Shown: piece after piece, positions 9,866 to 35,254 of the stretch
Layout: every line of letters begins with the position of its first letter
How positions within the stretch are numbered: position 1 is the stretch's first letter
Origin: Auanema rhodensis
Lineage: Eukaryota > Animalia > Nematoda
Direction: 5' to 3'
DNA: 64,000 bases
NCBI GenBank assembly: GCA_964057225.1
Contig: OZ059895.1
Coordinates: 17,360,001-17,424,000, forward strand
Notes under the pieces: generated by a model
The model's input: the letters and a program-made list of their open reading frames with translations, nothing else
Told to the model about the DNA's origin: nothing
Databases searched by the model: none
Program-made: the position numbers and the translations under genes

Positions 9866-10549
9866 GAGTTTATGTCGCGTCCTCGCGAATAGCAAAATAT
9901 GTGGCTTATTCCAATCGTAGCAGAAGGTTTAGTTTTAAAAAATAAAAATTACAATGTTAACATAAAAATAGTAAAGATAAATTACAATATAATGTTAAAC
10001 AATATTATCTGAAAAGAATTTAATAAAAATTATTTGAAAATACATGAATATTAAGGAATAAAACAATCTTTTTGAATACCAGGGCTATATTTTGTCAGCG
10101 AGAGTGCGCAAAATAGCTTTTTAGGCACGACGCTGCATGTCTAACTTGTTTGAGTATAGAGAAACGAGAGTCATGCTATATTATCGATGGAGCTAGCATG
10201 TTTCTTCAGCGTATTCAAAGCGAATTGTAATAATAAAAAAAATTAAACTAAATCCCATATAATTTCCGGAATTGAATCATTAACTACTTGATAAGGACTG
10301 TTGTTCAGATGAATATGCAATATAATGTCTCTTATCTTTCATTTCTTCTTTATTTACGGGAAATTATTTGAAATTGATGAAGTTTTATAATCATATATGC
10401 TTTGAAACTGAAATGCTTTTTGATTATTAGCTTACATCTCGTCTTACTCAAGTTTTTCAATGATATAATAATATGAATAGCTCTGGTTTTTTAAAAGAGA
10501 GTTGATACAAGGTTTTACAATAATTTTATCAATCTCGAAGTTATTTCTT

Positions 10550-13500
10550 TCATCGTCTTCTTCTTGGTGGTAGCCAATTTTGGTCCGATGGGTCTTCTGG
10601 TTCTGTTTCTTCAGTAGAGTCATAGTTATCGTTACCATTTATGACTTTTATGATCTCAATATCGCTGTCGTCGTCCGTGTCATAAGTCGTTGTATTTGAT
10701 CGCGTGTTTTGAGCGATTGTATGGTCCATTTTGCGTTCAAAAAGTTTGAGATTGTCTTTGTGTACGTCTTGAATTTTTCCAAATTGATTCTTGAGTTGTA
10801 CCATGTTTCCTTCAACGTTGATGACTTCAAATGGTCCATCATATGATTTGCGAAGCTTTTGACCTGGTTTATGCGCTTTAATTGCTAACATAACTTGGTC
10901 TCCTTTTCGGATATCTCTTTCTTCTATTCGTTGTCGTCCATCATGTTTTCTCTTCGCGGTTTCTTGATGTTTTGCAAGATTTTCTTGAATGATGGTTCTT
11001 CTTTCTCCTCTGATATATTCGGTATTCTCAATTTCTTCCAAGATCTCTGGTTGTAATGTCTCGGGGAATAATTCTTTGTCTAATCTCATACGACTTTCTT
11101 TTCCGAATAATGCTATGTATGGAGAGATTCCTGTGGTTGCGTGTGTTATTGTATTTAACGCAAAAGTAATTTTTGGTAAATACATGTCCCAATCAGTTAC
11201 GTCTTCGTTGAGATAGTGTGTTAATCCTTCTTCTAGCGTTCTGTGTAGTCTTTCGACTTGTCCATTAGAGTTTTTCTGATGAGGGAGTGTTGGCTCGTGT
11301 TTACTGCCGAGTTTTTCACACATTTCTTCAAATTTCTTTGATACAAAATTAGATCCACGATCGGTTATTAAACGATTTGGTGGTCCAAAAATATATACGA
11401 AATTCCTGAGGAATCTATCAATGATGACATCGGTGACAATTGTTGGTATAGCGATGGTTGTCGCCCATTTGGAGAATGAATCTTGTATTGTTAGGACATA
11501 ATTGTTGTTTCTTTTTGAAGTAGGGAATGGTCCCATAATATCCATATGTATTCTCTCAAATGGTTTTGATGGTATTTCAAATTGACCCATAGGCTGAACG
11601 GTCATAGCGTGAGGATCTTTCTTCCTTTGTGCGCATTTAACGCATTGTTTCACAAAAATTGCTATGTCCGTTTGCATATTTGTCCAGCAAAATCTTCGTA
11701 GTATGGCTTCTTTAGTTTTGTTAATTCCTTGATGTGCTCCAATTGCTGGGTCTTCGTGAAATTCTTCGATAACCTTGTTGATAAGTTCGCTTTCCCTTGG
11801 TAAAATCAAAGCTGGGTGTGGTCGTTTTCTGCTTGGTTTTGTGTATAACATGTTGTCAATAACACAATAACGATCATTAGAAAGCATGTTCTTTTTCGCT
11901 CTGTATTCTATTTCGGCGATAGTTCTCTTTATCCAAGGTGTATCCTCTTGAATTGCTCTAATGTCAGGTACATTAACGAAATTAATTTGAGCTTTCGGAA
12001 TTTCTTTTGTTTTCTTTTTCTTTTCCGGTTTAGGATCGTTTGCTTCATCTCCAATGTATCGTGAGAGAGCATCACAGACTTTGTTTAGTCTGCCTTCTCG
12101 GTATCTTATCTCGATATCATATTCCTGTATGACTAATTGAAATTTTGCTAGTCTTCCAAAAAGGTCTCTACGAGTCAATAAGCTTGTTAATGGTCGATGG
12201 TCTGTGATACAGATTGTATGTGATCCAAGTATATATGTTCGAAACTGAGCTAAAGCGTATACGAGTCCTAACGCTTCTATTTCAATAGGAGCATAGTTAC
12301 GTTCTGCTTTTACAAGTTTACGGCTTGCAAATGCAATTGGATGTAAGTTTTTGAGTGGTTCATTGGGATCTTCAGGTTGTAATAACACTGCTCCCACTGC
12401 GATATTACTACCGTCACTTTCTATAATGAACATACGGTCTGATCTTGGTGGTTTTAAGACCGGTGCTTGGATCAATTTTCTTTTTAGTGTATCAACAGCT
12501 TGTTGACTTTTGTCATTCCATTGAAATTCCACATCAAGTTTTGTAAGGTCGTATAAAGGGCTTGCGATGTGTGCAAAATCTTTAATAAATTTCCGAAAGA
12601 ATCCTACCATTCCCAAAAATGCTCTTACTCCTGTAGGTGACTTTGGAGCAGGATAGTCTTGAATGGCGGAGACTTTCTGTGGATCTGGTTTGACCCCATC
12701 TCTTCCGACAATTAAACCAAGAAATTTTACTTCAGGTCTTGCAAAAGCGCATTTCTTCAGTTTTATTTTCATGCCTAATTTCTTTACTTCTCTGAGAATC
12801 TCAGCTATATCGTCAAGATGTTGTTCTGCAGTATCTGATATAACGAGTAAATCATCCAAATAAACAAAGAGTCGGCATTTACATCTGCTTTGAAGGTATC
12901 GTACTGCTGTTTGAAAGGTATGTGGCGCTCCACATAACCCCATAGGCATCCTTCTATATTGATAAGTACCGGTGTTTGTTGTAAATGCTGTTAATGGTCG
13001 ATCTGATTTCTTTAATGCTATTTGGAAGAATCCGGATACTAAATCAAAGTTAGAAAAATATTGTGATCCGGCTGCCATATCGACAATGTCAGAGATGTTA
13101 GGTATGATGTACGTTTGCTTGCGAGTGACGTTATTTAGAGCACGGAAATCGGTTACGAAACGGAATGTTTCATCTTTCTTTTTGACTAAAACTACAGGAC
13201 TATTGAAAAGAGATGTGGATGGTTCAATTATATTTTGCTTCAGCATCTCCTGTACCTGTCTTTCGACTTCTTCTTGTTTGCCTATAGGGATACGCGTTAT
13301 ACGCGGTCTAGGCATGTCCATATCTGTTCTTAGAGGTATTGAATGCTCTACAGGTCCTTTAAATAGTCCTATTTGTTTATCCTCATTTAAAAATGCATCT
13401 CTATTACGGAGAATACAAAGCTGAAGTAGATCTTTTTGTTCTTTAGTTAGGTCGGCGTCTTTCAAATCAAGATCGTTCATGAAGTCCTGAGGAAAATGAG

Positions 13501-16500
13501 GTAATTTATTTTCCCAATCCGCTTCAGGTGGTATATAGTCTGGATTGTGTTCGGTCGTAAAGATCTCGTATTGTGGCAGTACGCCTATTTTTGCTTTGTC
13601 AATAATGTTTCCGGGTGATAGATCTATAGGATGATCAGTGTTGTTTTTGAATGTCATGGTAATTGAATTGACGTCTCGAAATGCTGTTTCGTAGGTGGTA
13701 GATATCGTCTTTTCTTCATCGGGTTGTAGCATGGCGACTTCGTTGTGTGATATGGGTTCAGCTAACCTTACTGGTATTCTACAGGTCTGATGAGGAAAGA
13801 TACATTGTGGATTTAAATTTATCAAATTAATGACAAATGATGTTTTTCTGATATTCCCGTTATTTCCATTGGCTAACGGTACTACGCGGTTTCCGATTTC
13901 TAACGTTTGTTTGAATGGTCGAAGTTTCATACCGATATTTTGACGATCGAGTGTTTTCATAAAATCTAATCCAATCAATGCTGGTGATGGACAGTCTTCA
14001 TCTCTTGAAATGAAGAATGTATGATCTATTTCATATCCAGCGATTTCTACGGTTAAATCAATTGTTCCCAGAAATCGAAATTCTGATCCGTTTGCTGTCG
14101 TTGCAACTGATTTATCCTTTTTTACAAAATCATTCAAAGTTAAGTAATGTAATGTCGAGAGTCTGATATAACTAATCGATGATCCTGAATCCCAAAGAGT
14201 TAGGATTAGTCTATCGTTAACAGTCATCAATAGCAATGGTAGAGTTTGGTCTTTGCGATTGGAAACTGAACAAACTATGGGCATAGCTAGTGGAACTAAA
14301 GTGAGAAACGATGGATAGTACTGTTTCATTATATTCTTTGGTATTGGCTGATCAGGTTGACTTACTAGCTCTAATGTTTCTTCATATGTGGGAAGATCGT
14401 TGGTTTGATCTCGGAGTTCGATATGCATGACTTGCATGCCAATTGGTTTGAAGAAATATATTTTCGCAACGAAGGCTAGTACGATCAGTATAACTACAAT
14501 AATTGTAATTGCTCCGATAGTGATGAGTGTTCGTTCAATCGTTCCTGCTATTGTATCGACAAATGAATTCCATGTACTTTTGGTGAATTCATTGGCTTTG
14601 GAGATGTAATCACTACTTGTCTTCAATATGCTGAATGCTGATGATATTTTTGGATCATGATGAATTGTGTGAAGCACGTGATTTTGACGAATCGATGCTA
14701 AACTAGCACCATAAGCAATGGCTGTTGTCATTGAGTACACTCGAGATGATAAGTTGGTGTATAAGTGTGCTCCGGTGAATTTTAATGGCGTGATCTTTTC
14801 ATGATGAAGTCCGTCCCACATGGATATAAGACTGACGTCTACAGTACCATTAATTCCTTTCCATTCACCGTCTGTTGACCATACGTCTGTTGGTACGTGA
14901 TCACAGTTAATTTCTTTACCATGAGGTAATAGGTCTTTCGATCCTGGTGCGGCAAACAGTAATTGTCCTTCTTGTGTTAATACTGGGGTTTCGAGATAAC
15001 ATGTGCCATTCACAGTGTGATTGTGATATATAGTCTTTTGTAATACTACCGGGCAAACGTGTATATGTAATATCTCGCTGCCTACAAATCTTGCGGCTAT
15101 ATCTTCTCTTCCCAGTATTGTACGCATAGCTATTGTTGGTTCAATTTGTAAAATTGATCTCCATAATTCAAGATACCTATTTTGGATCTCACATATTGAT
15201 TCGTATGACTCTTTAAAATGTTTCTGCAGTTCTTCTTGAATCATAGTTGTAGCATATTGCAAATGATCTTGTGCAATTCTGCTTGTTATGTTTTGGCGAA
15301 ACTGTTGTTCAGAGTCAACTTTTGTGGCAATGTATTGAGCATTAGCCTGTACAGACTCTATATCGGTGGCTGTAGGCGTTGATGATGCTCTATGTTTACG
15401 AATCAAAGATATTGGTGTATATGTAGTTTCTTCCATTATTGGAATTTGTTGATCTTGATGAACAGCGTAGAGAATAGTCGTTGGCGGCGTGCGGGTCGAT
15501 ATTGTTGCGCGCGCGGTTGTCGTTGCGGTTGTATGGCGCGCCGTTGTTTCGGGCTGGCCCATCGATGAGGGCGCGCGCGCGGTAGTTGCTGCGGCTGCCC
15601 GAGGGCTTGTAGATGTTTGCGGCAGTATTGCGGGATCTGTTGTGATCGGCGCCTCACGATCGATTATAGGGAGGGTTGCCATCTCGGCCGCGCCGCCTGC
15701 CGCGTTGCTTGGTGCACGCGTCGTGGTTTGCAACGATTTAAGTTGGATTTTCTCTGTCATTAATCTTTTTAACTGTTCTGATGATATTCTACTAGATGTA
15801 TTAGGCAAAATATTATCGTTTAGTAGTGGTAAAAATATTTCCAATAATAAGTCCTTAGAGATGTTGTTGGGCTCTATGAGCTTGGGATGTGGTCCAATTG
15901 GTATTCCAAAATTATTCTTGATGTCATAGAACAATTTATCAGTATCAAGTACAAACATTCGTGAAGATGGAAGGTTTATAAATTTTATGTCATCAATATC
16001 AGCTGCTGTTTTATTTCTTCTAAGCGTAACGAGAGTTTTTAGCTCATGTACAAGGTCAATTGTATCTTTTATAAATTTGCTGTTTCTTTCTTCTTGATCA
16101 GTTAATAATTGTTTCCTTATTGGTGGCATTTTTACGAATGCTTTCAATATTTCTTGTCTTGATGGAACTGTTAATTTGTCTTCAATTATAACTGGTGTAT
16201 TGGCTAAATCAAGAGCAATAGTTTCAGCACGCTCTCGATAAGTGCCTTCTTTTGTACGAATTAACCGATCAAATTCAATAACGGTCAAACGATCTGATAT
16301 TTGTTGAAGAAGTTGCCTGGATGTTAAATAAGATATTCCAGCTTTAGTAGCTAAAGCTAATTCTCTTTGAGCAACATATTGTAAAATGGCTTCGTCTTTA
16401 TCACGGAAATCATATTGTTTGAGAAAATGTCTTAAAGATTTCTCATAAATTTGAATTTTAAAGAAAAATTCAAAATTTTCACGATGGGCTATTATCCATT

Positions 16501-19288
16501 CTTTCAAGGAATATGTAGGGTCTACCATACGTCTTCCTTTAATTAGAGGAATAATTTGTGTAATTCCTGGATTACTCATAAGTGGTCTTAAAAATGGATA
16601 TGGGCAAATTCGAAGCGTGTACGTTTCAAAATCTTCAACATCATTTATTCTATCCTGATCGAATGGGAATGAGCATTTTGTAGAAGTTGCGCGTTTAGGT
16701 CTTTTGAACGGCAATTTCTTAAATTCTCGTTCAATTAGGAGTGTGATATTGTTATCATTAGGATATTTGGGGAATGTTATATAATTTCCTGATGTTGTAT
16801 GGAATGCTGGTTGTCTAAAGCAGGATGCAATTGGTTTTGGTGTTATTTTACTCGAAAGGATAAGCGCTGATTGTGTACTTGGAATCAAAATAGTTTCTTT
16901 GCTTATTATAGCATCGTAGTAATGCATATCGATATAATTACAACGGGAATCCGATGTTTGGGGATCCCATATAATTATTGATGTATTTGATTTGCAATTA
17001 CCATGATGAGAACTACAACCTTCAGTGTTTAGTATTAAATTGGATAATATTGTATCATCGGGCATGCGGGTCATGACTCCGCGCTCTAGTACTAAACGCG
17101 GCCGCTCCTCGCACTCGTCGCGGCTAAACGCGCGCGCCGGATCATAGGAGGGCTCTGGGGTTGCTTGTGCTATACTATCGATTCTCTCCAGCTCCATGTT
17201 ATTCCATTTGCGATCGCGAATCGCCTGCCTGCACTCGTGCGCCGCTATAGGCTGCACCCTATCGATTGTTCTGTTTGTGTCGCGGAGGAATAACAAATCG
17301 CGTACACACAGCTTGTGTACTTCCTTCGAGCAGCGCCACGCGTCCCACTCGTGAGCCGTGTGGTTTCGCGTGTATAGATGGATTTGTGTACGTAGCACAT
17401 GATTTGTTTCTGTTAATTTACATTTCTTTACTACTGGTGGAACTAATAAGGCTCCTCCAGTTGCTTTTGTGCAAATTTGATATGAAGTTACACATGGCAG
17501 GAAAATTGCTACTGTGATTGCCATTACAACCGTTAGTGATAACGGTGAAAGGGTCACAGAGTTAATTCGTGGTGTGCTTCTATCTCGTCCTCTTGATTGA
17601 TCTCTTTGATTGTTAAAATGGACTCTTCTTTGTCCGTTATGTTCATTAGTCCTTCCTCTTCTACTATTGTTTGAAGGATTAAAATTGTTTGAATGCCAGT
17701 TGTTATTAAATCGTCCCGAATTTCGTTCATAATTATTGTTACGGCGATAATTAGCAAAAGAGCCGTTACGATTTTGGTTGTTATTATATTTTGAAAAGTT
17801 TTTATTTTTCTGATAATTTTGATAATTATGATAATTTTTATTGTTTTGGTTATCACGTGGATAATTACGGTCGAAATTTCGGTTATCTCGTCTCTCGTTT
17901 GTGCGCGCGAAAGGAGCTAGTGCTTTGTTTACAGCATTGACTAGCATGGACTGCGTGTCTGTTGTCTGGTTCATTATCGATTCTTCCCAGCGAGCGGCCT
18001 CAATCGCATCCGTGAAGGATTTTGGCTTCGCTCGAATCACAGCTGGTTTCAGAGTATTTTTCAATCCTCTGAGGAAAGTTGATCTTAATATGTGATCTTT
18101 GTGAGGGTCATCCGTGGCAAAAGCGCTTAGTGCAATCGTTCTCAGTGATTGAGCGTAAGCGTCAATTGTCAGATCCCCTTGGGTTGTATTTTGGAGATTG
18201 ATCAGCGCGGGGTCCTGATTATATTCAGGACACAGCTTAGATGTTAAAGCTCTTAACAGGTCATTCCATGAACCGGTGGTTTTTAATTGTTCAGGTACTT
18301 GTCTGTACGCTTCTTCCGCTGCTTCGTTTTTAAGAAGCAAAGGTAGAAGGGCTAATCTCTCCGGGATTACCAGACCTACAGCGTTGGCAAATAGGTTGAA
18401 TTTAGCCGTGAAATCTCGAAAGTTGCGACTGCCATCATAAGTTGGGCAGTAGGGTGATAACAAGGCTTGCGCTATGGTAGTTTTCCCTGCCCCAGGTAAA
18501 GAGGGTTCAGTTGCCATATTACTTGTACGGGCAGATGGCATTTTTATCACTCTGCCTGTTGTTAATGAGTTCTCAGACACAGGGGTTGTGTGTACTGAGC
18601 GGCTGGGTTGGTTTGGTGCTTTTGAACTTCCTGTTGTTGTATTTGGTAAAATTGGGGTTGAAGTTTGGTTATCAGTAATAGCAAGATGTGTATGTTCGGG
18701 TGGTTGTATGGGAGATAAATTAATGTTTGGAACCGACGAGTATCTGTTTGTGTGGCTGGTGTTCAAGTTTCGATCTTTTGGTGAACGATTGAAGAGATCA
18801 GAAACTATGTTTTTAAAAGTTTGTAAACCGCCTGCACTAGTAGTGGCTACTGAAGGTGAAACTGTTGGTTCAAGGATGGACAGAGAGAGAGATGCGTCCG
18901 ATTTGCTTGAGTTTTTATTTTTATTTTTCTTATTTTTATTTGAATTAGAGGAGCGTACCTTTTTAGCAGTAACTGGTGTTTGTTCTTCCACTATGACGGA
19001 TGTTTCTTCTCCTCCTGGTGGTACGTAATCCTCGTCGCTTAATCGTTCAGTAGGTGAATAAGTGCCTGCACGAGGAGTAAAGAATTTGTCGGTTTTGTGC
19101 TCGGCTTTCTGCTCGTCTTCGATTATAGCGATGCTCTGTGCGCGAGCTCGGCTTCTGGTGAGTGGAGCTGAGTCTCGCAGATCAAAATCAGTTTGTGTAC
19201 TGAGAGGTACAGCTGATCGGAATCGCTTATCCACTTTGGTAGCGCTCTTGGTTTGGAAAAACCTTGAGTGTTTAGTAACGTGGGGGAT
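10550..19288 (-). CDS. E1 Gag-Env-Pol polyprotein (probable AUC start at 19288; ORF-track GTG at 19234; first AUGs at 18541 and 18517)
   Basis: Capsid-like Gag and N/R-rich region; signal peptide (VVMAITVAIFLPCVTS|YQIC, mature Env from 17482); gB-like ectodomain; TM ~14449-14527; protease LWDSGS (~14190); RT YLDD (12851-12862); RNase H ESDGS..E..TDH..DALSR; integrase HHCC, D-D-E and GPF. No stop codon or frameshift. The start position is inferred. Confidence 0.95.
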   Translation of the reverse strand: MPHVTKHSRFFQTKSATKVDKRFRSAVPLSTQTDFDLRDSAPLTRSRARAQSIAIIEDEQKAEHKTDKFFTPRAGTYSPTERLSDEDYVPPGGEETSVIVEEQTPVTAKKVRSSNSNKNKKNKNKNSSKSDASLSLSILEPTVSPSVATTSAGGLQTFKNIVSDLFNRSPKDRNLNTSHTNRYSSVPNINLSPIQPPEHTHLAITDNQTSTPILPNTTTGSSKAPNQPSRSVHTTPVSENSLTTGRVIKMPSARTSNMATEPSLPGAGKTTIAQALLSPYCPTYDGSRNFRDFTAKFNLFANAVGLVIPERLALLPLLLKNEAAEEAYRQVPEQLKTTGSWNDLLRALTSKLCPEYNQDPALINLQNTTQGDLTIDAYAQSLRTIALSAFATDDPHKDHILRSTFLRGLKNTLKPAVIRAKPKSFTDAIEAARWEESIMNQTTDTQSMLVNAVNKALAPFARTNERRDNRNFDRNYPRDNQNNKNYHNYQNYQKNKNFSKYNNNQNRNGSFANYRRNNNYERNSGRFNNNWHSNNFNPSNNSRRGRTNEHNGQRRVHFNNQRDQSRGRDRSTPRINSVTLSPLSLTVVMAITVAIFLPCVTSYQICTKATGGALLVPPVVKKCKLTETNHVLRTQIHLYTRNHTAHEWDAWRCSKEVHKLCVRDLLFLRDTNRTIDRVQPIAAHECRQAIRDRKWNNMELERIDSIAQATPEPSYDPARAFSRDECEERPRLVLERGVMTRMPDDTILSNLILNTEGCSSHHGNCKSNTSIIIWDPQTSDSRCNYIDMHYYDAIISKETILIPSTQSALILSSKITPKPIASCFRQPAFHTTSGNYITFPKYPNDNNITLLIEREFKKLPFKRPKRATSTKCSFPFDQDRINDVEDFETYTLRICPYPFLRPLMSNPGITQIIPLIKGRRMVDPTYSLKEWIIAHRENFEFFFKIQIYEKSLRHFLKQYDFRDKDEAILQYVAQRELALATKAGISYLTSRQLLQQISDRLTVIEFDRLIRTKEGTYRERAETIALDLANTPVIIEDKLTVPSRQEILKAFVKMPPIRKQLLTDQEERNSKFIKDTIDLVHELKTLVTLRRNKTAADIDDIKFINLPSSRMFVLDTDKLFYDIKNNFGIPIGPHPKLIEPNNISKDLLLEIFLPLLNDNILPNTSSRISSEQLKRLMTEKIQLKSLQTTTRAPSNAAGGAAEMATLPIIDREAPITTDPAILPQTSTSPRAAAATTARAPSSMGQPETTARHTTATTTARATISTRTPPTTILYAVHQDQQIPIMEETTYTPISLIRKHRASSTPTATDIESVQANAQYIATKVDSEQQFRQNITSRIAQDHLQYATTMIQEELQKHFKESYESICEIQNRYLELWRSILQIEPTIAMRTILGREDIAARFVGSEILHIHVCPVVLQKTIYHNHTVNGTCYLETPVLTQEGQLLFAAPGSKDLLPHGKEINCDHVPTDVWSTDGEWKGINGTVDVSLISMWDGLHHEKITPLKFTGAHLYTNLSSRVYSMTTAIAYGASLASIRQNHVLHTIHHDPKISSAFSILKTSSDYISKANEFTKSTWNSFVDTIAGTIERTLITIGAITIIVVILIVLAFVAKIYFFKPIGMQVMHIELRDQTNDLPTYEETLELVSQPDQPIPKNIMKQYYPSFLTLVPLAMPIVCSVSNRKDQTLPLLLMTVNDRLILTLWDSGSSISYIRLSTLHYLTLNDFVKKDKSVATTANGSEFRFLGTIDLTVEIAGYEIDHTFFISRDEDCPSPALIGLDFMKTLDRQNIGMKLRPFKQTLEIGNRVVPLANGNNGNIRKTSFVINLINLNPQCIFPHQTCRIPVRLAEPISHNEVAMLQPDEEKTISTTYETAFRDVNSITMTFKNNTDHPIDLSPGNIIDKAKIGVLPQYEIFTTEHNPDYIPPEADWENKLPHFPQDFMNDLDLKDADLTKEQKDLLQLCILRNRDAFLNEDKQIGLFKGPVEHSIPLRTDMDMPRPRITRIPIGKQEEVERQVQEMLKQNIIEPSTSLFNSPVVLVKKKDETFRFVTDFRALNNVTRKQTYIIPNISDIVDMAAGSQYFSNFDLVSGFFQIALKKSDRPLTAFTTNTGTYQYRRMPMGLCGAPHTFQTAVRYLQSRCKCRLFVYLDDLLVISDTAEQHLDDIAEILREVKKLGMKIKLKKCAFARPEVKFLGLIVGRDGVKPDPQKVSAIQDYPAPKSPTGVRAFLGMVGFFRKFIKDFAHIASPLYDLTKLDVEFQWNDKSQQAVDTLKRKLIQAPVLKPPRSDRMFIIESDGSNIAVGAVLLQPEDPNEPLKNLHPIAFASRKLVKAERNYAPIEIEALGLVYALAQFRTYILGSHTICITDHRPLTSLLTRRDLFGRLAKFQLVIQEYDIEIRYREGRLNKVCDALSRYIGDEANDPKPEKKKKTKEIPKAQINFVNVPDIRAIQEDTPWIKRTIAEIEYRAKKNMLSNDRYCVIDNMLYTKPSRKRPHPALILPRESELINKVIEEFHEDPAIGAHQGINKTKEAILRRFCWTNMQTDIAIFVKQCVKCAQRKKDPHAMTVQPMGQFEIPSKPFERIHMDIMGPFPTSKRNNNYVLTIQDSFSKWATTIAIPTIVTDVIIDRFLRNFVYIFGPPNRLITDRGSNFVSKKFEEMCEKLGSKHEPTLPHQKNSNGQVERLHRTLEEGLTHYLNEDVTDWDMYLPKITFALNTITHATTGISPYIALFGKESRMRLDKELFPETLQPEILEEIENTEYIRGERRTIIQENLAKHQETAKRKHDGRQRIEERDIRKGDQVMLAIKAHKPGQKLRKSYDGPFEVINVEGNMVQLKNQFGKIQDVHKDNLKLFERKMDHTIAQNTRSNTTTYDTDDDSDIEIIKVINGNDNYDSTEETEPEDPSDQNWLPPRRRR

Positions 19289-20630
19289 TTTGAGACGTTA
19301 ATGAGTGTTATGGATAAGGAGTTTTGGAAAAGGGGTGAGAAAGCTGTGAGTAACTGGTTTGTATAGTCGGCGTTAAGGAATGAATCTAAGTTGTGGCCTT
19401 TAACAGAGATCCGCCTACTACCGTATGAAAATTTGGACTTTGTTCGCTTTCCAATTTAATATTCTTAAATGTATATAATTCAACCAGTTTGTATATGTTC
19501 AAAAATGTTCAGTGCTCACTTGATTGATGCCTGAGCAATCTCATTAGTCCTTATTCCCATTTTTTTTTCTTTTTCTGACGATTCTGATCTTCTTGGACTC
19601 ACGAGTGATCGAAAATGCCACGAAAATGGACTTTGGTAAATGTTCAAAGGATTTTAGCGGTTTTCATAATGTACATTCGTAATAGCATTACTCTTTTAAG
19701 GAAGCAATTTGGAAAACGAATGAGTACCGTAGTCCCATCATGATCAGAAATCTAGTTTTAAAATTATGGCTAGGAATAGATGACTAAAGATTACAATAAC
19801 TATATTTAAAGAATTATGGTGTTTAGGAATGAGTCTTATGCTTCAAAACAACAATAACGGTATGAGGAAGGTGACATATAGTAAGGGGAGAAAATCCAAA
19901 CTGATATGCTTAAGCCAACACGACCTGATAGACAATCACTAATAATAATTCAGTTCGTAAAATTGTACAGGATTTTTCGGACTATAGCGATCTTAAAATT
20001 CACTTTTCATAATATTCCTCCCATTTAGGTGAGGTTTCCCGTGTAAATTCAATGCGTTATCAAAATATTTTTGGATGTTAATGGCAAAAAGTTGTCTGAA
20101 CAGAAATGTAACGCAAAATAAAATAGTCCTGATCGCAAAATATGAAATAATCTCAATTTGGTGCGCAAAATTGTTTCATCCACAAAAAACAAAGAAATAA
20201 CCGTGGCTATTCTTTCCTCGAAGCCAAAATCAATCCTTAAAAGGAGAAAGTGTGGGCATAAATCTCAATAAAAATTATCCTTGGGTGAATTTGTTCACTA
20301 ATTCATCCTAGGGTCCTCAAAAATGCTTCGAGTTCGGGTAACAGAGTATTTGATGTTAACAGCAAGGATATAAAAATTGTTGGGTTCAGACAGACAGAAA
20401 ATTGTGAACAAACGGGAAAATATAACTTCAGTTTCAAAAAATATAAAATCCATCTCCAAAAGGAGTGGTCCTTGCATCTGTTCCCTTTTAAACGTTGTTG
20501 GCCCCACCGTATTGTGTTAAGACATGGAGTAGATGGTTTAGAGATATAAGAGAATTCAGATTCAATGAATTGTATTAAAAATAACGAAATATAAGAGAAA
20601 ATAGTCAAGAAATCAAGATAAAATGTTCGA

Positions 20631-20643
20631 GGTGGAACCTCCA
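20631..20643 (-). other. E1 primer binding site, tRNA-Gln (TGGAGGTTCCACC)
   Basis: Abuts the 5' LTR; complementary to the conserved metazoan tRNA-Gln 3' end ...GGUGGAACCU-CCA. Confidence 0.88.
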
Positions 20644-20980
20644 CGTTCCGTTATGCTCTCACGTCGATCCTATAGACCAATAAAGCCTACAAGATGAGTG
20701 TGATAGTATTCCAGATGTAGCGGTAGATAAAGAGCATAATGGATAAACATAAGACTCGAGAAAGAAAGGTTTATTATGTCTACATGATTACAATAAGTTA
20801 TATAAGTCTACATAAGGATATAAAGTGAAAGAGAGCTAAGAAAGGAAGACCAACCATCCATAGTCATTCCATAAGGCAAAGCTGAAGTCTGTGTTCCATA
20901 TGAAGGGCGTGTCGTCCTCTCTCAGCCTCATGTCGTCTGATTCTAACCCGCCTGCTACGTATTGATTTCCGAATGGAACG
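20644..20980 (-). repeat. E1 5' LTR (337 bp)
   Basis: Direct repeat of 9517-9853, followed in element sense by the PBS. Confidence 0.96.
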
Positions 20981-23546
20981 ATTCATTCGAATGAAATATT
21001 TTACTTCAATACGGAGCAGTATTGTTAAAAGTGACAAAGTGATTATTATCGACAAATGAAAACAACTTATCAAGCCTCATTGGCTCAGGGGCAGAGCGTC
21101 TGTCTAGTAAACAGAAGGTCGCTGGTTCGATTCCAGCATGAGGCATCGTTTTAGACTTTTTCAAACTATTTTGAGGATTAATTCGTGCTTCTTGAAGCTT
21201 TTACTTCAGGTTACATCTTCTCTTATTCATTCGAATGAAATATTTTACTTCAATATGGAGCAGTATTGTTAAAAGTGACAAAGTGATTATTATCGACAAA
21301 TGAAAACAACTTATCAAGCCTCATTGGCTCAGGGGCAGAGCGTCTGTCTAGTAAACAGAAGGTCGCTGGTTCGATTCCAGCATGAGGCATCGTTTTAGAC
21401 TTCTTCAAACTATTTTGAGGATTAATTCGTGCTTCTTGAAGCTTTTACTTCAGGTTACATCTTCTGTTATTCATTCGAATGAAATATTTTACTTCAATAC
21501 GGAGCAGTATTGTTAAAAGTGACTAAGAGATTATAATAGAGAAATGAGAATAACTTATCAAGCCTCATTGGCTCAGGGGCAGAGCGTCTGTCTAGTAAAC
21601 AGAAGGTCGCTGGTTCGATTCCAGCATGAGGCATCGTTTTAGACTTTTTCAAACTATTTTGAGGATTAATTCGTGCTTCTCGAAGCTTTTACTTCAGGTT
21701 ACATCTTCTCTTATTCATTCAAATGAAATATTTTACTTCAATACGGAGCAGTATTGTTAAAAGTTACAAAGTGATTATTATCGACAAATGAAAACAACTT
21801 ATCAAGCCTCATTGGCTCAGGGGCAGAGCGTCTGTCTAGTAAACAGAAGGTCGCTGGTTCGATTCCAGCATGAGGCATCGTTTTAGACTTTTTCAAAATA
21901 TTTTGAAGATTAATTCGTGCTTCTTGAAGCTTTTACTTCAGGTTACATCTTCTCTTATTCATTCGAATGAAATATTTTACTTCAATACGGAGCAGTATTG
22001 TTAAAAGTGATAAAGTGATTATTATCGACAAATGAAAACAACTTATCAAGCCTCATTGGCTCAGGGGCAGAGCGTCTGTCTAGTAAACAGAAGGTCGCTG
22101 GTTCGATTCCAGCATGAGGCATCGTTTTAGACTTCTTCAAACTATTTTGAAGATTAATTCGTGCTTCTTGAAGCTTTTACTTCAGGTTACATCTTCTCTT
22201 ATTCATTCGAATGAAATATTTTACTTCAATACGGAGCAGTATTGTTAAAAGTTACAAAGTGATTACTATCGACAAATGAAAACAACTTATCAAGCCTCAT
22301 TGGCTCAGGGGCAGAGCGTCTGTCTAGTCGATTCCAGCATGAGGCATCGTTTTAGACTTTCTCAAACTATTTTTAGGATTCATTCGTGCTTCTCAAAGCT
22401 TTTACTTCAGGTTACATCTTCTCTTATTCATTCGAATGAAATATTTTACTTCAATACGGAGCAGTATTGTTAAAAGTGACAAAGTGATTATTATCGACAA
22501 ATGAAAACAACTTATCAAGCCTCATTGGCTCAGGGGCAGAGCGTCTGTCTAGTAAACAGAAGGTCGCTGGTTCGATTCCAGCATGAGGCATCGTTTTAGA
22601 CTTTTTCAAAATATTTTGAAGATTAATTCGTGCTTCTTGAAGCTTTTACTTCAGGTTACATCTTCTCTTAATCATTCAAATGAAATGTTTCAATTGAATA
22701 TGTAAACGCATTGTTGAAAGTGACTAAGAGATTATAATCGAGAAATGAGAATAACTTTTTAAGCCTCATTGGCTCAGGGGCAGAGCGTCTGTCTAGTAAA
22801 CAGAAGGTCGCTGGTTCGATTCCAGCATGAGGCATCGTTTTAGACTTTTTCAAAATATTTTGAAGATTAATTCGTGCTTCTTGAAGCTTTTACATCAGGT
22901 TACATCTTCTCTTATTCATTCGAATGAAATATTTTACTTCAATACGGAGCAGTATTGTTAAAAGTGACAAAGTGATTATTATCGACAAATGAAAACAACT
23001 TATCAAGCCTCATTGGCTCAGGGGCAGAGCGTCTGTCTAGTAAACAGAAGGTCGCTGGTTCGATTCCAGCATGAGGCATCGTTTTAGACTTCTTCAAACT
23101 ATTTTGAGGATTAATTCGTGCTTCTTGAAGCTTTTACTTCAGGTTACATCTTCTCTTATTCATTCGAATGAAATATTTTACTTCAATACGGAGCAGTATT
23201 GTTAAAAGTGACAAAGTGATTATTATCGACAAATGAAAACAACTTATCAAGCCTCATTGGCTCAGGGGCAGAGCGTCTGTCTAGTAAACAGAAGGTCGTT
23301 GGTTCGATTCCAGCATGAGGCATCGTTTTAGACTTTTTCAAACTATTTTGAGGATTAAATCGTGCTTCTTGAAGCTTTTACTTCAGGTTACATCTTCTCT
23401 TATTCATTCGAATGAAATATTTTACTTCAACACGGAGCAGTATTGTTAAAAGTGACAAAGTGATTTATATCGACAAATGAAAACAACTTATCAAGCCTCA
23501 TTGGCTCAGGAGCAGAGCGTCTGTCTAGTCGATTCCAGCATGAGGC
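20981..23546 (+). repeat. Tandem tRNA-Thr(AGT) array, segment 3
   Basis: Same units; the order of variants matches blocks at ~38.3-39.8 kb and ~40.9-43.1 kb. Confidence 0.97.
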
Positions 23547-23912
23547 CGTTCCATTCGGAGACTCTATATATGTAACTGCAGGGTTAGAGCCAGACCGACT
23601 AGAGGAATGAGGAATGGCACCGCCTTCCCTCATGCCCCTATTCGGGAGTTCGCCCCTTTGCAAGCCCATGGACGGTTTGCATCTAACTTAGTTAATCTTA
23701 TATATTAGTCTTTGTCTTGTAAATGTAGTTTACTTTATCCTTGTGTTAATGTATTGTAATGATATTGTATTGTGTATAATAAACCTATATATTTCCTTAT
23801 CTTATGTAATCCTTATGCTCTGTTTCCATACCGCTACACTTATGGAATACTATACGCGTAGTTGAGCAGACTACAATGGTCTGTTCAATATACGTAGGAG
23901 CATAATGGAACG
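23547..23912 (+). repeat. E2 5' LTR (366 bp)
   Basis: Perfect 9-bp terminal inverted repeat CGTTCCATT...AATGGAACG; AATAAA at ~23778; direct repeat of 35255-35620. Confidence 0.96.
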
Positions 23913-23925
23913 TGGAGGTTCCACC
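23913..23925 (+). other. E2 primer binding site, tRNA-Gln (TGGAGGTTCCACC)
   Basis: Identical to the E1 and E3 PBS; abuts the LTR. Confidence 0.88.
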
Positions 23926-24895
23926 TCGAACTCATTTTTGTCGCAAAAACTCGCATAAAAAGTCCATATTTTGATATCTAAATTAAAACTTCCTCCACGG
24001 TTAGCAACATAATGAGGGCGCCAACTTGTATAAGGTGCAGGTACAAGGGATCTCTCTTTTAGAGAGCTAGGACTACATAATTTTGAAATTTCACCCGCTG
24101 TCCCCACTCATAAAACCGTCTGAGTGTCCACCCTTATAATACCGTATCCTGCACCGCTTCTCTTGCATTTTTTTTTGAGGACGTTTGGATCGAAATAGGG
24201 GACAATTTCACCAAACGAAATTTTGATTACATTATTATTTGGCAACGAGGAGTTAGAATGAAATTTTGAAAGCGCACAAAGTTTAATATTTTATTGTGGT
24301 CAGGACTAGAGATTTGAAAGTTAAATTCAGGCGTAAAAGAGCATGCTAACTAAATATTTTTGCGGGAGCCGTTATTCGGTTTTTATTTTTTTTTTGATTG
24401 TGAGAATAGACCACACTAGTCCGAAAAATCCTGGCACAAATTTTATTGCCTGTCAGGTCATTTTGGCGAAAGCACATGGGCTACGGATGTTTTCTTCTCC
24501 GTAGAATGTGTCACCTTCCTCAGCTCATTTTTGTTGCTAACATCATAAGATATTCCCACACACCTACCGTAGTATTCATATTGTAATATTCTATAAATTA
24601 GTAGAATGGTTTAAAGAAAAAAATTGCGTTTTATAAACGAGCTTTGGTCTCAGTCCATTAGTAAAATGAGCAATCTTTTTAAATATTCTCGGAATCTCAT
24701 TAGCATGCCAAAATCATTCCGAAAAAGAATCGCCCACGGCTTTTAATAATAACGTGCACATGAGCCATTTTCCCAAGGCGCACGCACTCCTTCTTTATTA
24801 ATAAGCTCGACCAAAGTTTGTGTTATGGAAAAAAAAAAAAAAGAGAGAGAGAACAAATGAGTGAAATTAAGTATTTATTATATATGAAACAATTG

Positions 24896-25429
24896 TTAAA
24901 AGCCCCATTTAAAATGCAACTGTCTCACAAATTCTATAGGCTGTGAGATGGGCTCATCGCTAGGCTCTAAATACTGCGAATACACCGAATCCGCAGAGGT
25001 CCTTAGCAATAAGCCCATAGGAGACTGTTCATAAAATAAATAAATTTTAAACAAAATTTTAGACATATAATCATAAAAATCATGAGACTTATGCTCATAC
25101 CAATTCCAAGGGGATGCGACCAGATTTGGGTTTTCATACCAATGCGCGCACAAGTCGGTGAGGCACCATCGCCGGATAGCTGCAACCTCATCCGCTATTT
25201 CCTGCATTAGGGAGAAGTTTACTAATCCCCTTCCCAGATAATGCATCTTTAAATCCTCAATAAACTAAAAATTCTTATTAAGATAACATGTTTCTTTGTT
25301 TTAACCAACCATCTTAATTATGTCTGGGTGCGGCCTATAAGCTAACACTTCGTCTTGATCATACAAGACGAGGTCAGCGTACAGCTTCCTCAAGACAAAA
25401 GTCATTCCCGATAGACCTTCATAAGCCAT
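24896..25429 (-). CDS. Candidate two-exon antisense accessory gene in the E2 leader (~162 aa; exons 25429-25310 and 25264-24896)
   Basis: Two adjacent minus-strand ORFs join in frame (…DIIKM|FIEDLKMHYLG…) across a 45-nt GTTGGT…TTTTTAG intron. No homologue recognised. Confidence 0.55.
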
Positions 25430-25789
25430 TCTTTGATTTATTTTTTTTTTTTCAGCTCTACAAATATAAAGATTCTTATGCATAAAAAGGGGACATAAAA
25501 CGACTGAAAATCTCTCTCATACTTTCAAGAATTCAATTAGAGTAAAGTATTAAGATTGAGGCTAGAAAGAGCGAAGACCAAAAAAAATTTATAATTGATG
25601 AACATCTGTGAAATAGAATAAAGAAAAGAGAATACGGTAGATAGGCGGAGCCAGATCTCAGGCCAAGATTTTAAAACTCTTTCTCATCTAATAACGATTC
25701 TCGGCGAAAGACGCCACGTCTCAATCTTCAAACGTTTCTTACTTTTCCTATAACCGACCCGAATTTCTTGTCACTCATTCAACGTCAAC

Positions 25790-28700
25790 ATCCCCCATAT
25801 AACGAAACACTCGCGGTTTTTCCGAACCAAGAGTGATTCCAAAGTGGCACGAAGATACTCTTCGGCCGTCCCTGCTCTATACCCTTCTGAGTCCAGTGAC
25901 GACATCGCAGTCGCCAGTCGAACCAGAAGCCGCACTCGACTCCTCAGTGTTCAGATTGAAGAGCCTGAACAAGAGGTAAAACCCAAAGTCGAGAAAACCT
26001 TCATTCCTCGAGAAGGCACGTATTCACCTCCGGACAACACCGAGGAGGACCCTGATTTCTATATTCAGGACTACAATATTCAAACTTCAGCTTCAACTCC
26101 AAAGGTACACTCTTTTAAAAGTAATAAAAAGATTCAAAAAATTCAAAAACCAAAACAAATAACCTCTAATACTTCACCAGCCACTCCCCACCTAAACTTA
26201 TCAACTTTATCAGTTAATACTGATAACGATCTTGCATCTTCTTTTGAACTAACTCTAACACCGCAGGCATTTTCCACTCCGATAGAAAACTCACAACTTA
26301 ATAAAACCTCATCTCTCACTATTCGCAAATCACCCTTATCAGTTATCACTGATAAGCTTGATTCGAAAAAGCTTGATTCTAAAAAAATTAATAAAAGAAA
26401 AACTAATACACCGCGTAGGCGCTCAACCTCTAATAATCCCGTAGAACCAAATCAGGAAATTACCGAAGTTTTGCCCTTATCACTAACTACTGATAAGTTC
26501 AAAAGTAAGAAATCTTTAACAGCTCGCTTAATAAAAGTTTTGAATTTGTCTCCAGGGGAGGTAACAACAGAACAAGTTGATAACTCTCTTCACGTATCCT
26601 CCAACCCAACCCTTAATAAGTCAGATAGCGCTATACCCAGCTCAAGCGTATCAATACATTCGACGCCTCAGGCAACGAGTCGAATTATCAAACTCCCAGG
26701 GAAGCGGTTCTCCTCAGCCGCCCCTACCATTAGTTATCCAACATCTGGTAACTCGAAAAAGGGAGGTAAGAATTTAACGGCGAGAAGCTCAGGCAGTAAA
26801 GGGATTACGTCATCTCGCACATACCCTGAGGATATACCAACCATGACGGAGACACCACGTCTTCCGGGAGCTGGTAAATCTACCATTGCGCACGCATTAA
26901 GCTCACCTTATTGCCCCATATACGACGGAAGTCGTAACTTTAGAGATTTCGTGGCAAAGTTTAATACCTTTTCTAACGCCTTAGGCTTAGTGATGCCCGA
27001 AAGACTAACTATTTTACCATTACTATTGAAAAATGATAGAGCAGAGGAAGCTTATTTAGAGCTACCTGACAAGGTCAGAACTGCTGGACCTTGGGTTACC
27101 CTAATAGAAGAGTTAACATCCAAGCTGTGTCCCGAATACAATCAAGACCCTGCCCTTATCACACTTCAAAACAGCACTCAAGGCGATTTATCAATTGATG
27201 GTTTTGCACAAACGTTAAGAAACCTCAGCTTAAATGCTTTCTCTAATAGTGATACTCATAAAGATCACATTCTGAGGTCCACATTTTTGAGAGGCTTGAA
27301 AAATACGATACGCCCAGGGGTAATTCGAGCAAAACCCAAAACTTTTGCTGAGGCTGTTGATAGTGCTCGCTGGGAGGAATCAATTGCAAACCAAGTAGCA
27401 GACCCTCAGGCGCTATTGGTTAACGCAATTGAAAGAACTTTCCCCCCGCGCAGAAACAATGGTGGGAGAGGTATGGCAAGAGGTTATCAATCTTTTAATA
27501 ATAAAAATTATCAAAATTATAATAATTATAACAATTATCATCCAAACTTTCAAAACAATCAAAATTATCATAAATTTTCAAAAAATCAAAAAGGCTGGAA
27601 TTTCCAAAACCCATTTGCTAGGAACCGCAATTTTGGTGACCGCGGTCGAAATTATCAGAATCAAAATCAAAATGGGTATCAAAGAAGCCATAATGCATCA
27701 CAAAATCAAGAAATGAGCAATAATAGACAGAGAAATAACAGTACCTTTAGGGGAAATAACAACAATAGAGGCAGAGGTAGAGGCTCAAGAGTCAATAATT
27801 TGACTCTGATATCTCCTTTGACTTTAGCCGTAGCTTTATCAGTAATCTTATCACTGGTTACAACAGCTGAAGCATACCAGCTATGTACTAAAGCTACTGG
27901 AGGAGCCCTTCTCCGTCCCCCATCTCTCCGAAAATGCTTATTACCACCAATAAAGCATATCTTACGAACAAAAGTTCATCTTTATACAAGGAATCAAACG
28001 GCACATGAATGGGATGCATGGAGATGCTCCAAAGAAATTCATAAAATGTGTATCAGAGACCTTTTGTTCCTTAGAGATACCAATACAACGATAGCGAGAA
28101 TTGAAAAGATACCAGCTGCAGAATGCAGACTGGCAGTGAGAGATAGAAGATGGAATTGGAGTGAATTAAAGAAGATCGACAGCATAACATATGCAACTGA
28201 CGAGCCTTCCTTCTCGCCAGGCCGATCTTTTAATAATGAACTATGTGAAGAGAAAGCCAGATTGGTTATCGAAAGAGGGGTTATGACACGGATGCCAGAT
28301 GAAACTATAATCTCCAATTTAATACTAAATACTGAAGGATGCTTAGCGCATCATGGAGAATGTGCATCAGATACCTCAATCATCATATGGGAGAAACAGC
28401 CTTATGAATATCGATGCAACTATATCGACATGAGTGAATATGATGTGATAATTGGAGACGGCATTATTCTGTTACCAACCACTCAATCAGCCCTTGTAAT
28501 CGATCAAAAAGAGATACCGAAGCAAATATCTTCTTGTTTTAAACAGCCAATCTTCCACACCACAACTGGCAATTACATTCTCTTACCACAGTACCCAAAT
28601 GACACCAATATCCATGTTTTAATAGAGAGAGAATATAAGAAACTTCCGGCGAAAAGAGATAAAAGAGCAATTGCGGAATGCACGGTTGAATTAAACAAGG

Positions 28701-31700
28701 AGTGGATACAAAAACAGGAAGATTTTGAAACTTTAATATTAAATATTTGTCCTTATCCTTTCTTACGACCGGTGATGAGTAATCCTGGTATTTATCAGAT
28801 AATACCGCTTATAAAGGCCAGACGAGCTGTCAACCCTTCATATTCAATTATTGACTGGGTTTCAGCACATCCCGAGAAGTTTTATTTCTTCTTAAGAAGT
28901 CCCGTATCTGATAAATCCATACAACGTTTCCTTCAAACATACGAAATACACGACCCTGAGGAAGCAATACTTTATTTTCTTGCGCAAAAGGAACTGGCAG
29001 CAACCACTCGCGGCGCTATACGGTATTTAACCTCACAACAATTATTAGAACAGATAGGTGACAGATTAACAGCACACGAATTTGACGAAAAACTGCTAGA
29101 AAAAGACGGATCCTACCGTGAAAGAGCCGAAAGCATAGCGATGGAGTTAGCTTATACACCGGTAATATTTGAAAACAATCTGTCGGTACCATCAAGGCAA
29201 GAGGTTTTAAAATCCTTTGTGAACATGCCGCCGATCCGACCAACTCTAACAACTGACAATGCTGATGAGCGTATAGTACTTAGAAACACTCTTTACTTAT
29301 ACCATAACTTGATGACATTGCGAGTAATAAGGCCAAATAAAACAGCAGCAGCCGTAGATGATGAAAAGTTCCGACAATTAACAATCAATGTGCCAGATAC
29401 CAACAAATTATATCGAGATAAAGATTCTAACTACGGTATATCGATAGGGCCCCACCCTCGCATTCAAAACCCAAGCGCAGATACACGCCAGCTACTTATA
29501 AAAACATTTTTACCACTGTTAGAGGATATTGAAACACCGCCTTATCTGACTAGAAGACTGTCATTAACGACAACAACGGACAAACCCGCTTCACTAGTTC
29601 AGGAGACAACTAAAAGCCATACGACTCGGATTCCGACGACAACCACAGTTGAGACGACAACAGCCGCGATAACTACGACTCTCTCGCCAACAACATTAGC
29701 AACAGTCACTGACACGGCGTCACGAATCTTAAGGAAACAAAGAACATCATCTCCACCCGTAGAAACCAGAGAAATTCAGGCTCAGGCAACGTATACAGCG
29801 TCAAAAGTGAACAACGAAATACAATTCAACCTCAACGTATCTCGCAGAATAGCTCAAGATCATCTACAATATACAACAACACTCATACAAGAAGAGCTAC
29901 AGAAACATTTCATGGAATCTTATGAATCCATATGTGAGATTCAAAATAGATACCTCGAGCTATGGCGTTCTATTTTACACATAGAACCTACAATAGCAAT
30001 GAGGACTATTTTAGGAAGAGAGGATATTGCAGCCCGTTTCGTAGGCAGCGATATAGTTCATGTTCATATATGCCTACCTCTTCAACCTAAAGCTGTTTAT
30101 CATAATCATAAGATCAATGATACATGCTATTTGGAAACACCAGTAATAACAGAAGATGAGAGATTATATTTTGCTGCTCCAGGATCAAGAGACTTATTAA
30201 CACATGGAAAAGAGATAGATTGCGAACATGTACCCACAGATGTATACTATCAAAATGGAGAATGGATAAATATAAATGGATCGGTTGAAGTAAAACCAAT
30301 ATCACTCTTTGATAAAGCGCAATACCACCAATTAACACCTTTAAAGTTCACAGGCGCTAACTTATACACCAATTTATCATTGAGAGTTTACTCAATGTCA
30401 ACAGCTATTGCATATGGAGCAAGTTTAGCATCCATACGACAGAACCATGTTTTACATACTATTCACAACGATCCAAAAATTACGTCCGCCTTTAATCTTT
30501 TGAAAAAGGGCAGTGACTATATCTCTAAAGCAGCTGAGTTCACAACTTCCGCCTGGACTAGCGTAAAGCAATTTCTAATAGGATCAATTGAGAGAACACT
30601 CATCTTCATAGGATCAATGGTTACGATTGCCGCAGTATTAATAATTCTTTTCGTTGTTGCTAAATTTTGGTTCTTCAGAGCCACTCCACTAACCGTAATG
30701 CATGTCCACGAAATAGATAATGAGCCCCCAAGCTATGAAGAAACATTGGAACTTGTAAGCCGCCCAGACCAACAGATGCCAGATAACATCATGAAGCAAT
30801 ACTATCCTGCTTTAGTAACATTTATTCCAATCGCAATACCATTTGTTGCTTCTATTGTATCAGCGGAAACAAAGTTACCATTAATATATATATCAGTTGA
30901 AGATAAACTGATTTTAGCTTTATGGGATTCAGGCTCATCAGTGTCATATGTTAGGCTCTCCACCCTCAAATATCTGAACATGGCCGAAAATGTCAAGAAG
31001 AGACATTTAGTAGCGATGGCAGCCAACAAGTCCACTTTCACATTTTATGGAAAGATAAATCTTGTAATTGAAATTGCCGGTTACGAGATCGAACACACCT
31101 TTTTGGTCTCAAACGATCATGACTGTCCTGCTCCCGCTTTAATTGGACTAGATTTCATGAAAGCGCTTGACAGCGAAAACATCGACGTCAGCCTTAAACC
31201 ATCCAAGAAGAGGTTGGAGATTGGAAACAATGCCATCCCATTAATAGGAAACGAATCTATTAAGCATACGGAGATAACTGTGAATATCATTAATTTAAGA
31301 ACAAAAACATTAAAGCCTGATGAAGAGGCACCTATCCCAATAAAGACAGATAAACCACTAGAATCTAACGAAGTGGTTGTCTTAGGGGATAGTGGAAGCG
31401 CATTAAAATCATTATATCCAACTGCGTTTCGTGATACCAGTGGAGTATATGTTATGTTCCGTAACAATACCGATGAAACAATAGCTATGGAAGCTAATTC
31501 AGTCATCGGACAGGCAATAATTGGAGAAATTCCGGCTTGTGAACCCTTTAAGCATAAGCCAATTCTACCATATGTTCCGCCAGAGGCCGATTGGGAGAGT
31601 AAACTACCATATTTTCCAAGAGACTTCATAAAAGATCTTGATCTAGAGAATGCTGATCTCACGAAAGAAGAAAAACATGAGCTTACAAAAATAATTGAAA

Positions 31701-34549: not shown

Positions 34550-35243
34550 CAACAAGATAATGCTACGTTATTTAAATTATTGTAACAAAATAACGATGAA
34601 TTAAAAAAAAAAAAAAAAAATTAATGCTAAATAACATTCAAAATAAAAATAGCATTTAATAGAGATTGAGAAAGGAAAAATAAGGCAAATTCTAAACGAG
34701 GAGATGTTATGACTAATGGTTCCAAGTTACCGTAATCCTATGCGGACTAGAGGACATTTTGACAACCATCCGAGCTCCATGTGCCTCTCCAAATAAGATG
34801 AGATGAACACTGGTAGGCGTATCAACCACAATTTCATCTTAAGTGGTAGTCTCCATTAGTAATCAAGGATTCACTCTGGGAGACATATGGAGACACATTA
34901 TTAAATCATAATCTCGGTTCAATTTAGAAATGAGTACTTCTTGAGACCATTAGTCAAAATAATAACATATTCCCATTCATTACTAGCCCCTTTATTCTAC
35001 AATCTCTATTAGGAAATGCTTGAATATTAAGATAATTAATTTATGAAATTAATAATATTCTAATTCATCGTCCCTTCATATTATATTGAACCCTTCTTAT
35101 AAATTATTGTAATTTTGTTTGTATACTAACTAAAACTCTATCATACTATAGTTATTGTGAAGCTAAAACAATTGAACTCTAAAACTCAGTTACATATAAG
35201 CCCAAATTTTTGTTTAAAATATCGCGAGGTCGCGACAATCTTT

Positions 35244-35254
35244 GAAAAAGGGCA
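35244..35254 (+). other. E2 polypurine tract (GAAAAAGGGCA)
   Basis: Purine run abutting the 3' LTR. Confidence 0.75.

Follow-up and report, generated by a model that had tools for sequence, protein, structure and literature searches.

Three recent insertions (E1, E2 and E3) of two nematode-type gag-env-pro-pol Ty3/gypsy families, lying in a window of 64,000 nucleotides from Auanema rhodensis, carry LTRs that run CG…CG and are flanked by 4-bp target-site duplications (TSDs). This terminal motif is real and precisely bounded, it occurs in an element family that is already known, and the integrase of these elements likely joins a CG-3'OH and not a CA-3'OH; to this reading as a whole we assign a probability of about 0.72. 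TG…CA termini are usual for LTR elements, and no cis feature of retroviral and LTR-retrotransposon integration is more conserved than the terminal CA. These usual termini are absent from E1, E2 and E3 (CG…CG) and likewise from S (TG…CG), a solo LTR of a third family in the same window. The conclusions cover a single genome window and the two families with CG…CG ends in it, and the course of end processing is read from the layout of the elements, whose features are collected in Table 1.

Table 1. Positions of the elements and their parts in the window (PFV, prototype foamy virus)
Feature	Position	Strand	Description
S, solo LTR of third family	6528..6908	+	381 bp, TG…CG; TSD CTTC 6524-6527, 6909-6912
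E1 whole element	9517-20980	-	
E1 3' LTR	9517..9853	-	337/337 identical to 5' LTR; PPT + CA 9854-9865; TSD ATTC 9513-9516
E1 ORF	10550..19297	-	single, 2915 aa; gag, gB-like env, protease, RT, RNase H, integrase
E1 5' LTR	20644..20980	-	337 bp, CG…CG; PBS 20631-20643; TSD ATTC 20981-20984
E2 left TSD AGGC	23543..23546		right copy 35621-35624; in 3' acceptor stem of 19-nt-deleted tRNA-Thr copy
E2 5' LTR	23547..23912	+	366 bp, CG…CG; 366/366 identical to 3' LTR
E2 PBS for tRNA-Gln	23913..23925	+	flush with LTR
E2 ORF	25754..34549	+	single, 2931 aa stop to stop; gB-like env, protease, RT, RNase H, integrase
E2 integrase end-contacting loop and catalytic Glu2699	33821..33859	+	HQKN where PFV has YHPQ
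E2 polypurine tract and 2-nt CA spacer	35244..35254	+	ahead of 3' LTR
E2 3' LTR	35255..35620	+	CG…CG
E3	46956..48268	+	internally deleted E1-family copy with PBS and 5' leader; TSD ACAT
E3 LTRs	46956-47292; 48019-48268		full 5' LTR; 3' LTR without first 87 nt; 250/250 common bases identical

The ends were read directly at the junctions in the window. All three elements are bounded by CGTTCC…GGAACG, each with its own 4-bp TSD: ATTC/CGTTCC…GGAACG/ATTC in E1 (9517/20980), AGGC/…/AGGC in E2 (23547/35620) and ACAT/…/ACAT in E3 (46956/48268). In an empty-site test, wherein k nucleotides were taken off the right flank, the flanks were joined and matches to uninterrupted monomers of the surrounding array were counted, k = 4 recovered 96 (E1), 138 (E2) and 138 (E3) intact monomers, and k = 0-3 and 5-8 recovered 0. 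The first base (C) and the last base (G) are pinned by comparison of the two LTRs within each element, in which the base 5' of the LTR is C versus A and the base 3' of it T versus A. The CGTTCC hexamer is not enriched in the window (12 seen versus 12.18 expected), and 11 of its 12 matches lie at LTR ends; at the left end of E1 and of E3, no TG occurs within 8 nt. The CG…CG ends with 4-bp TSDs reported in a preliminary description of this DNA, whose interval of 23543-23925 comprises the E2 TSD, 5' LTR and PBS, are borne out by these junctions and by the restoration of monomers at k = 4 only. Its count of three independent insertions holds as a count of insertions, but only two families are represented, E3 being a copy of the E1 family.

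The same ends recur in other sequencing runs. The first 4 kb of E2 are present in 15 runs from four studies (2 flagged as a possible source), with no RNA run on record as carrying them, and 4 of the 15 were compared with the E2 5' LTR. In run X4, one unitig begins exactly at 23547 and another stops exactly at 23912, each with 0 differences, and contigs of run X8 cross both the PPT-LTR and the LTR-PBS junctions of E2, again with 0 differences. Contigs of runs X2, X6 and X8 at the U5-PBS region of E2 (23892-23939) show 2 differences in 36-42 nt before passing into unlike sequence, which suggests further sister LTR families with E2's U5-PBS junction region. The Logan contigs showed no new flanks for E2; as these contigs drop branches, this has no bearing on copy number. 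That the termini have simply been misread, because the assembly is wrong, because TG…CA mutated after insertion or because the boundary is shifted and the TSD is 5 bp long, is hardly credible. A 5-bp TSD is formally possible for E2 taken alone (with a GGAAC end) or for E3 taken alone (with a GTTCC start), but the two shifts run in opposite directions and E1 rules out both; moreover, the same termini are found in every E-family LTR and in the contigs of other runs. A TSD-shifted boundary was the very observation named beforehand as fatal to the claim of CG ends; with E1 excluding the shifted readings and a 4-bp TSD obtained at k = 4 only, the ends of E1, E2 and E3 are precisely fixed. As a separate observation, DNA runs X1-X11, under five organism codes, carry 0.84-0.98 of the E2 words, for which synonyms, mixtures or horizontal transfer are possible explanations.

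The solo LTR S, which the preliminary description missed and which has neither coding nor internal sequence in the window, yielded 98 empty monomers in the empty-site test, at k = 4 only. It was compared with contigs of four runs, among which X4, X5 and X8 were informative. Contigs of these three match S up to 6908 and diverge immediately 3' of 6908 and immediately 5' of 6528; those of high depth in X4 and X8 that stop at 6908 show 0 differences to S, and the sole difference in X5 lies at 6795. A point mutation of one solo LTR is ruled out as the source of the CG end by the presence of the same end in X4, X5 and X8, and its fixation there makes TG…CG a trait of the S family. The last 8 U5 bases of S match those of E2 at 7 of 8 positions, and the overall LTR similarity is weak, exceeding 500 of 500 block shuffles against E3 and not significant against E2 (87/500). 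Past 6908, the loose ends (identical in X4 and X5; also X8) fit the tRNA-Gln PBS of E1 and E2 at 13 of 13 positions, provided that ties are printed alphabetically; this presumed tie-break rule accounts for 30 of 30 positions on the opposite side, against 0.0002 for random 30-mers. Under it, chance PBS compatibility of both loose-end read-outs is ~0.005, and the second X4 contig on each side gives a single degenerate pattern of 4 bases that is the same on both flanks, which is what a 4-bp TSD would produce. In run X8, a G-rich purine tract abuts the TG start of the S family; the spacer between PPT and LTR seems shorter here, and hence the 2-nt U3 layout would not be universal in the group. In its sequence, S looks like an asymmetric intermediate between TG…CA and CG…CG: as the two ends are templated separately and CG…CG lies one transition per end from TG…CA, an intermediate of this kind is expected, and S has such a form.

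Assignment of the elements to Ty3/gypsy (Metaviridae) accords with direct LTRs and a TSD, the order PR-RT-RH-IN with D,D(35)E, and a PBS and PPT in place. The LTRs of E1 and E2 are 66% identical, and E3 is 97.8-99.1% identical to E1; the deletion in E3, which spans the coding region and the PPT and reaches 87 nt into the 3' LTR, probably followed insertion, since the 5' LTR is complete. In E1, the domains run gag (322-413), gB-like (1343-1605), PR (1691-1781) and RT (2038-2196), with env placed between gag and pol in one ORF. The gag Pfam match was obtained in E1 only, not in its E2 paralogue; the gB-type env is indicated by PF24664, above its cut-off in E1 and E2, and by PF00606, which at an E of 1e-8 lies below its own. 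The ten best of 85 pol-region homologues come from Caenorhabditis and Diploscapter, with 44-52% identity and the same gB-type domains, and the domain order of E1 and E2 recurred in 3 of 3 relatives checked. These nearest named proteins make a nematode host, and more narrowly a rhabditid, likely; the window has no host gene. In a quick, midpoint-rooted RT-RNase H tree of 79 of 87 rows (8 left out for short coverage; published named elements are not among the rows), E1 and E2 pair with each other (support 100); together with six Caenorhabditis proteins they make up a group of 8 rows (95), which lies inside a 21-row clade (SH-aLRT 99) that contains all 16 gB-bearing rows.

Judged from these sequence comparisons, E1 and E2 nest in the nematode env-bearing GAG-ENV-POL (NERV) clade, and the family is thus already known. 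According to the accessible part of the source, nematode GAG-ENV-POL elements with an HSV/gB env were described, as Nematoda HSV/gB-type 'errantiviruses', by Chary and Hayashi, who credit Sacco et al. 2022 (PMC13524379; PMID 35550022). These elements resemble E1 and E2 in having gag-env-pro-pol in one ORF with a gB-like env and a tRNA-Gln PBS flush with a 300-400 bp LTR, and in pol E1 and E2 are ~50% identical to Caenorhabditis and Diploscapter proteins of the same domain order, whereas the CG…CG termini of E1 and E2 and the TG…CG termini of S set the present elements apart from them. In the portion of supplement file 2 available, a Gln PBS is given for 8 of 36 nematode rows, being flush with the LTR in 6 and overlapping it by one base in 2; the reverse complement of the E1/E2 PBS is the 12-mer listed there as Gln_UUG_CUG and is exact in 2 Gln rows (PMC13524379). 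The main text of the same paper, in its accessible part, contains neither 'dinucleotide' nor 'target site'. Metagenome contigs scanned for the U5-PBS junction gave 2 loci, neither with a polyprotein match, and protein scans gave 0 and then 1 locus in viral contigs and 16 in genome contigs, with no env-region match in any of the 17. All 17 are gypsy elements of distant kinship, with 21-36% identity in the genome contigs and 31% in the viral one, and yielded no relative's LTR ends. A gypsy-type element at L011:8688-15714, with TG…CA ends and a 5-bp TSD, sits on a contig filed under a bacterial MAG; the contig is probably eukaryotic contamination, and several other loci of the genome-contig scan look alike.

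The integrases of E1 and E2 have intact HHCC and D,D(35)E motifs, and their best solved relatives are those of Ty3 (PDB 7q5b) and prototype foamy virus (PFV; 3l2q), with E of 3e-22 and 2e-20, respectively. Around the catalytic Glu the alignment to both is gap-free: PFV Y-H-P-Q at 212-215 corresponds to H-Q-K-N in E1 and E2, such that the HPQ of the PFV and Ty3 end-contacting loop stands against QKN, and PFV has Asn three residues past the catalytic Glu where E1 and E2 have His. Among the 80 of 85 matches aligned at the Pro position, Pro is missing in 13 of 15 gB-bearing relatives (7 His, 6 Lys) versus 10 of 65 others; the loss among gB-bearing relatives is one clade-level change, not many. The available text on PFV states that residues 212-214 touch the scissile dinucleotide through van der Waals contacts only (PMC3395085), and that on RSV states that the Gln at the position of PFV Gln215 stacks against the pairing partner, a G, of the penultimate C (PMC7955051). 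According to the latter source, RSV integrase has Ser at the Pro position yet uses CA ends, and the loop change hence need not explain the CG ends; a link between the two may be put forward as a hypothesis.

CG is also present at the internal U5-PBS and PPT-U3 junctions, which template the progeny ends, and the LTR pairs of E1 and E2 are 100% identical; integrase must consequently have received CG ends, and the four clean 4-bp duplications argue strongly for ordinary integrase action. In E1 and E2, the joined strand very probably ends in G-3'OH, and the CG-3' joined end given in the preliminary description is the most likely one in view of the CG…CG ends and 4-bp TSDs. In retroviruses, the PPT is followed by 2 nt and then the LTR, a layout that provides a 2-nt extension for trimming by integrase. 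Both families have a purine tract, CA and then the LTR at U3, and by this likeness the plus strand would start 2 nt before the LTR and integrase would remove TG from the 3' end opposite, which would leave CG exposed. At U5, the end is probably blunt or carries one tRNA-derived base, full 2-nt symmetry being less likely; the TG that follows the LTR at U5 is uninformative because a flush PBS is the complement of the tRNA CCA end. Both ends would then be joined over a 4-bp stagger, with CG presumably tolerated because the penultimate C:G pair and the 3' purine are kept and because the end-contacting loop of the clade is without the Pro/Gln pair. The ends likely arose by two single transitions, from TG…CA to TG…CG (as in S) to CG…CG.

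Symmetric processing, in which a TG extension on both cDNA ends is trimmed from both and RNase H must leave rC-rA at U5, had been suggested earlier and is rather doubtful as a whole. The suggestion remains plausible at U3, where both families have PPT, CA and LTR, and is doubtful at U5, where TG begins any flush PBS. It draws on GGAACG-TG, found internally at both ends of E1 and E2, which with the two internal bases included gives perfect terminal inverted repeats of 11 nt in E2 and 8 nt in E1, and on the retention of the CA spacer in both families; nevertheless, any flush PBS yields TG at U5, and most elements of the clade with a Gln PBS have it flush, as tabulated in supplement file 2. Retroviral RNase H, furthermore, usually leaves 0 or 1 ribonucleotide of the tRNA primer, two being unusual, and asymmetric end processing exists in foamy virus. 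At the opposite extreme, 3' processing may be dispensed with altogether: in Ty1, the PBS is flush and blunt ends are joined without 3' processing, and E1 and E2 could likewise start their plus strand at the first C of the LTR, lose the tRNA flush and have blunt CG joined. This is improbable, for although the flush PBS is as in Ty1 and the purine tract of S seems almost to abut TG, a pyrimidine-containing CA between purine run and LTR in both families is the layout of 2-nt trimmers.

A further alternative concerns the enzyme and not the substrate. Integrase may have lost its specificity for the last base, with CG the product of neutral drift and the loop change unrelated, and this deserves serious consideration even though we lean against it. 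The solely van der Waals nature of the base contacts at the PFV scissile dinucleotide, as given in the available text (PMC3395085), is in keeping with such relaxation, as is S, which combines a CA-type U3 end with a CG-type U5 end and whose integrase hence accepts both. The occurrence of CG at all four att ends of families with 66% LTR identity points instead to constraint, for which shared ancestry would also account. The reading preferred here remains that integrase joins CG-3'OH ends, trimmed at U3 and probably blunt or nearly so at U5.

The 'satellite' that fills the window (1..64000) is a tandem array of tRNA-Thr(AGT) genes, of which ARAGORN called 122, all Thr. The array unit is mostly 244 bp, or 225 bp where 19 nt of the anticodon arm are deleted, a recurrent event, and an identical 72-mer follows 99 of 152 tRNA starts. 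Tandem tRNA arrays have been published for one rhabditid nematode species, as stated in the accessible part of the source (10.64898/2026.08.27.747507). The preliminary description lacked both the tRNA-gene nature of the array and the identity of the element family. The four LTR insertions (6524, 20981, 23543, 48269) lie in under 40 kb of tRNA array at four different array phases, three of them 71-106 bp upstream of the next tRNA and one (E2) inside a deleted tRNA copy. The distances to the next tRNA start (71, 94, 106 and 178) do not cluster significantly with four sites (P 0.20); targeting of tRNA genes at a fixed distance, of the Ty3 or Ty1 type, and use of the array as a safe harbour are both possible. 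The array, E1 and E2 show no CpG depletion (observed/expected 0.89-1.06; 0.73 in the short S), and CG ends should therefore escape strong erosion by methyl-C deamination. A broader proposal, which we advance tentatively and consider rather unlikely, is that a nematode sub-clade (E1, E2 and the Caenorhabditis relatives with Lys at PFV Pro214) switched specificity from CA to CG, stepwise through an S-like TG…CG form, coupled to remodelling of the loop and enabled by a host in which CpG does not decay. If this is true, no retro-integrase would have been shown earlier to favour a G-3'OH, and LTR annotation that relies on motifs would have overlooked the class.

That some LTR elements depart from TG…CA had been acknowledged in the preliminary description, and this precedent stands, although the animal gypsy case was left out: according to the available text, Drosophila errantiviruses end AGT/AnT (PMC5408687). 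The errantiviruses (gypsy, ZAM and Idefix subgroups) are, like E1 and E2, env-bearing Ty3/gypsy elements with both ends off TG/CA, but they join T whereas E1 and E2 most likely join G with the penultimate C kept, and they have an F-type env after pol and Ser or Lys primers where E1 and E2 have a gB-like env before pol and a Gln primer. In the accessible part of a survey of 50 plant genomes, TG..GA, TA..TA, TA..CA, TG..CT, TACT, TGTA and TCCA are listed, 89% of the elements being Copia and the first T being called invariable (10.1101/137141); TGTT and AACA ends are given for Rosaceae, with integrase divergence suggested for TGTT, in the available text of PMC5659011. These plant elements (Tos17 with TG..GA, AtRE1 with TA..TA, TARE1 with TA..CA) share odd terminal dinucleotides and normal TSDs with E1 and E2, but in the portions available they are mostly Copia and, unlike in E1 and E2, none of the motifs seen has G as its last base or C as its first. 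No report of CG…CG or TG…CG LTR ends was found in the literature available, in which short motifs search poorly, and the accessible parts of PMC3315495, PMC10309623, PMC7084138 and 10.1101/2021.07.27.453949 contain nothing on terminal dinucleotides. The terminal motif, with its apparent half-way form, appears to be new in a known element family, a prior description being possible. E1, E2 and S are recently active natural elements one transition off CA at one end (S) or both (E1, E2), with a visibly altered loop, and together they offer a clean natural series in which to study recognition of the last base by integrase and the co-evolution of ends and enzyme. In practical terms, filters for TG…CA or for listed motifs would drop or mis-trim such nematode elements; the earlier warning that TG/CA-motif LTR finders would miss the E1 and E2 families is supported by their CG…CG ends.

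Lastly, two minor features are common to E1 and E2. Both ORFs are open upstream of the first Met, which lies at codon 364 in E2 (25754-26842) and at codon 253 in E1 (19297-18542), and the N-terminal ORF region is alignable between them, with 47% identity across 1285 columns; translation may thus begin at a codon other than AUG, or a leader exon may be joined on by splicing. The PBS of both families lies inside a short hairpin with a 5-bp stem and a 3-nt loop (23915-23927).
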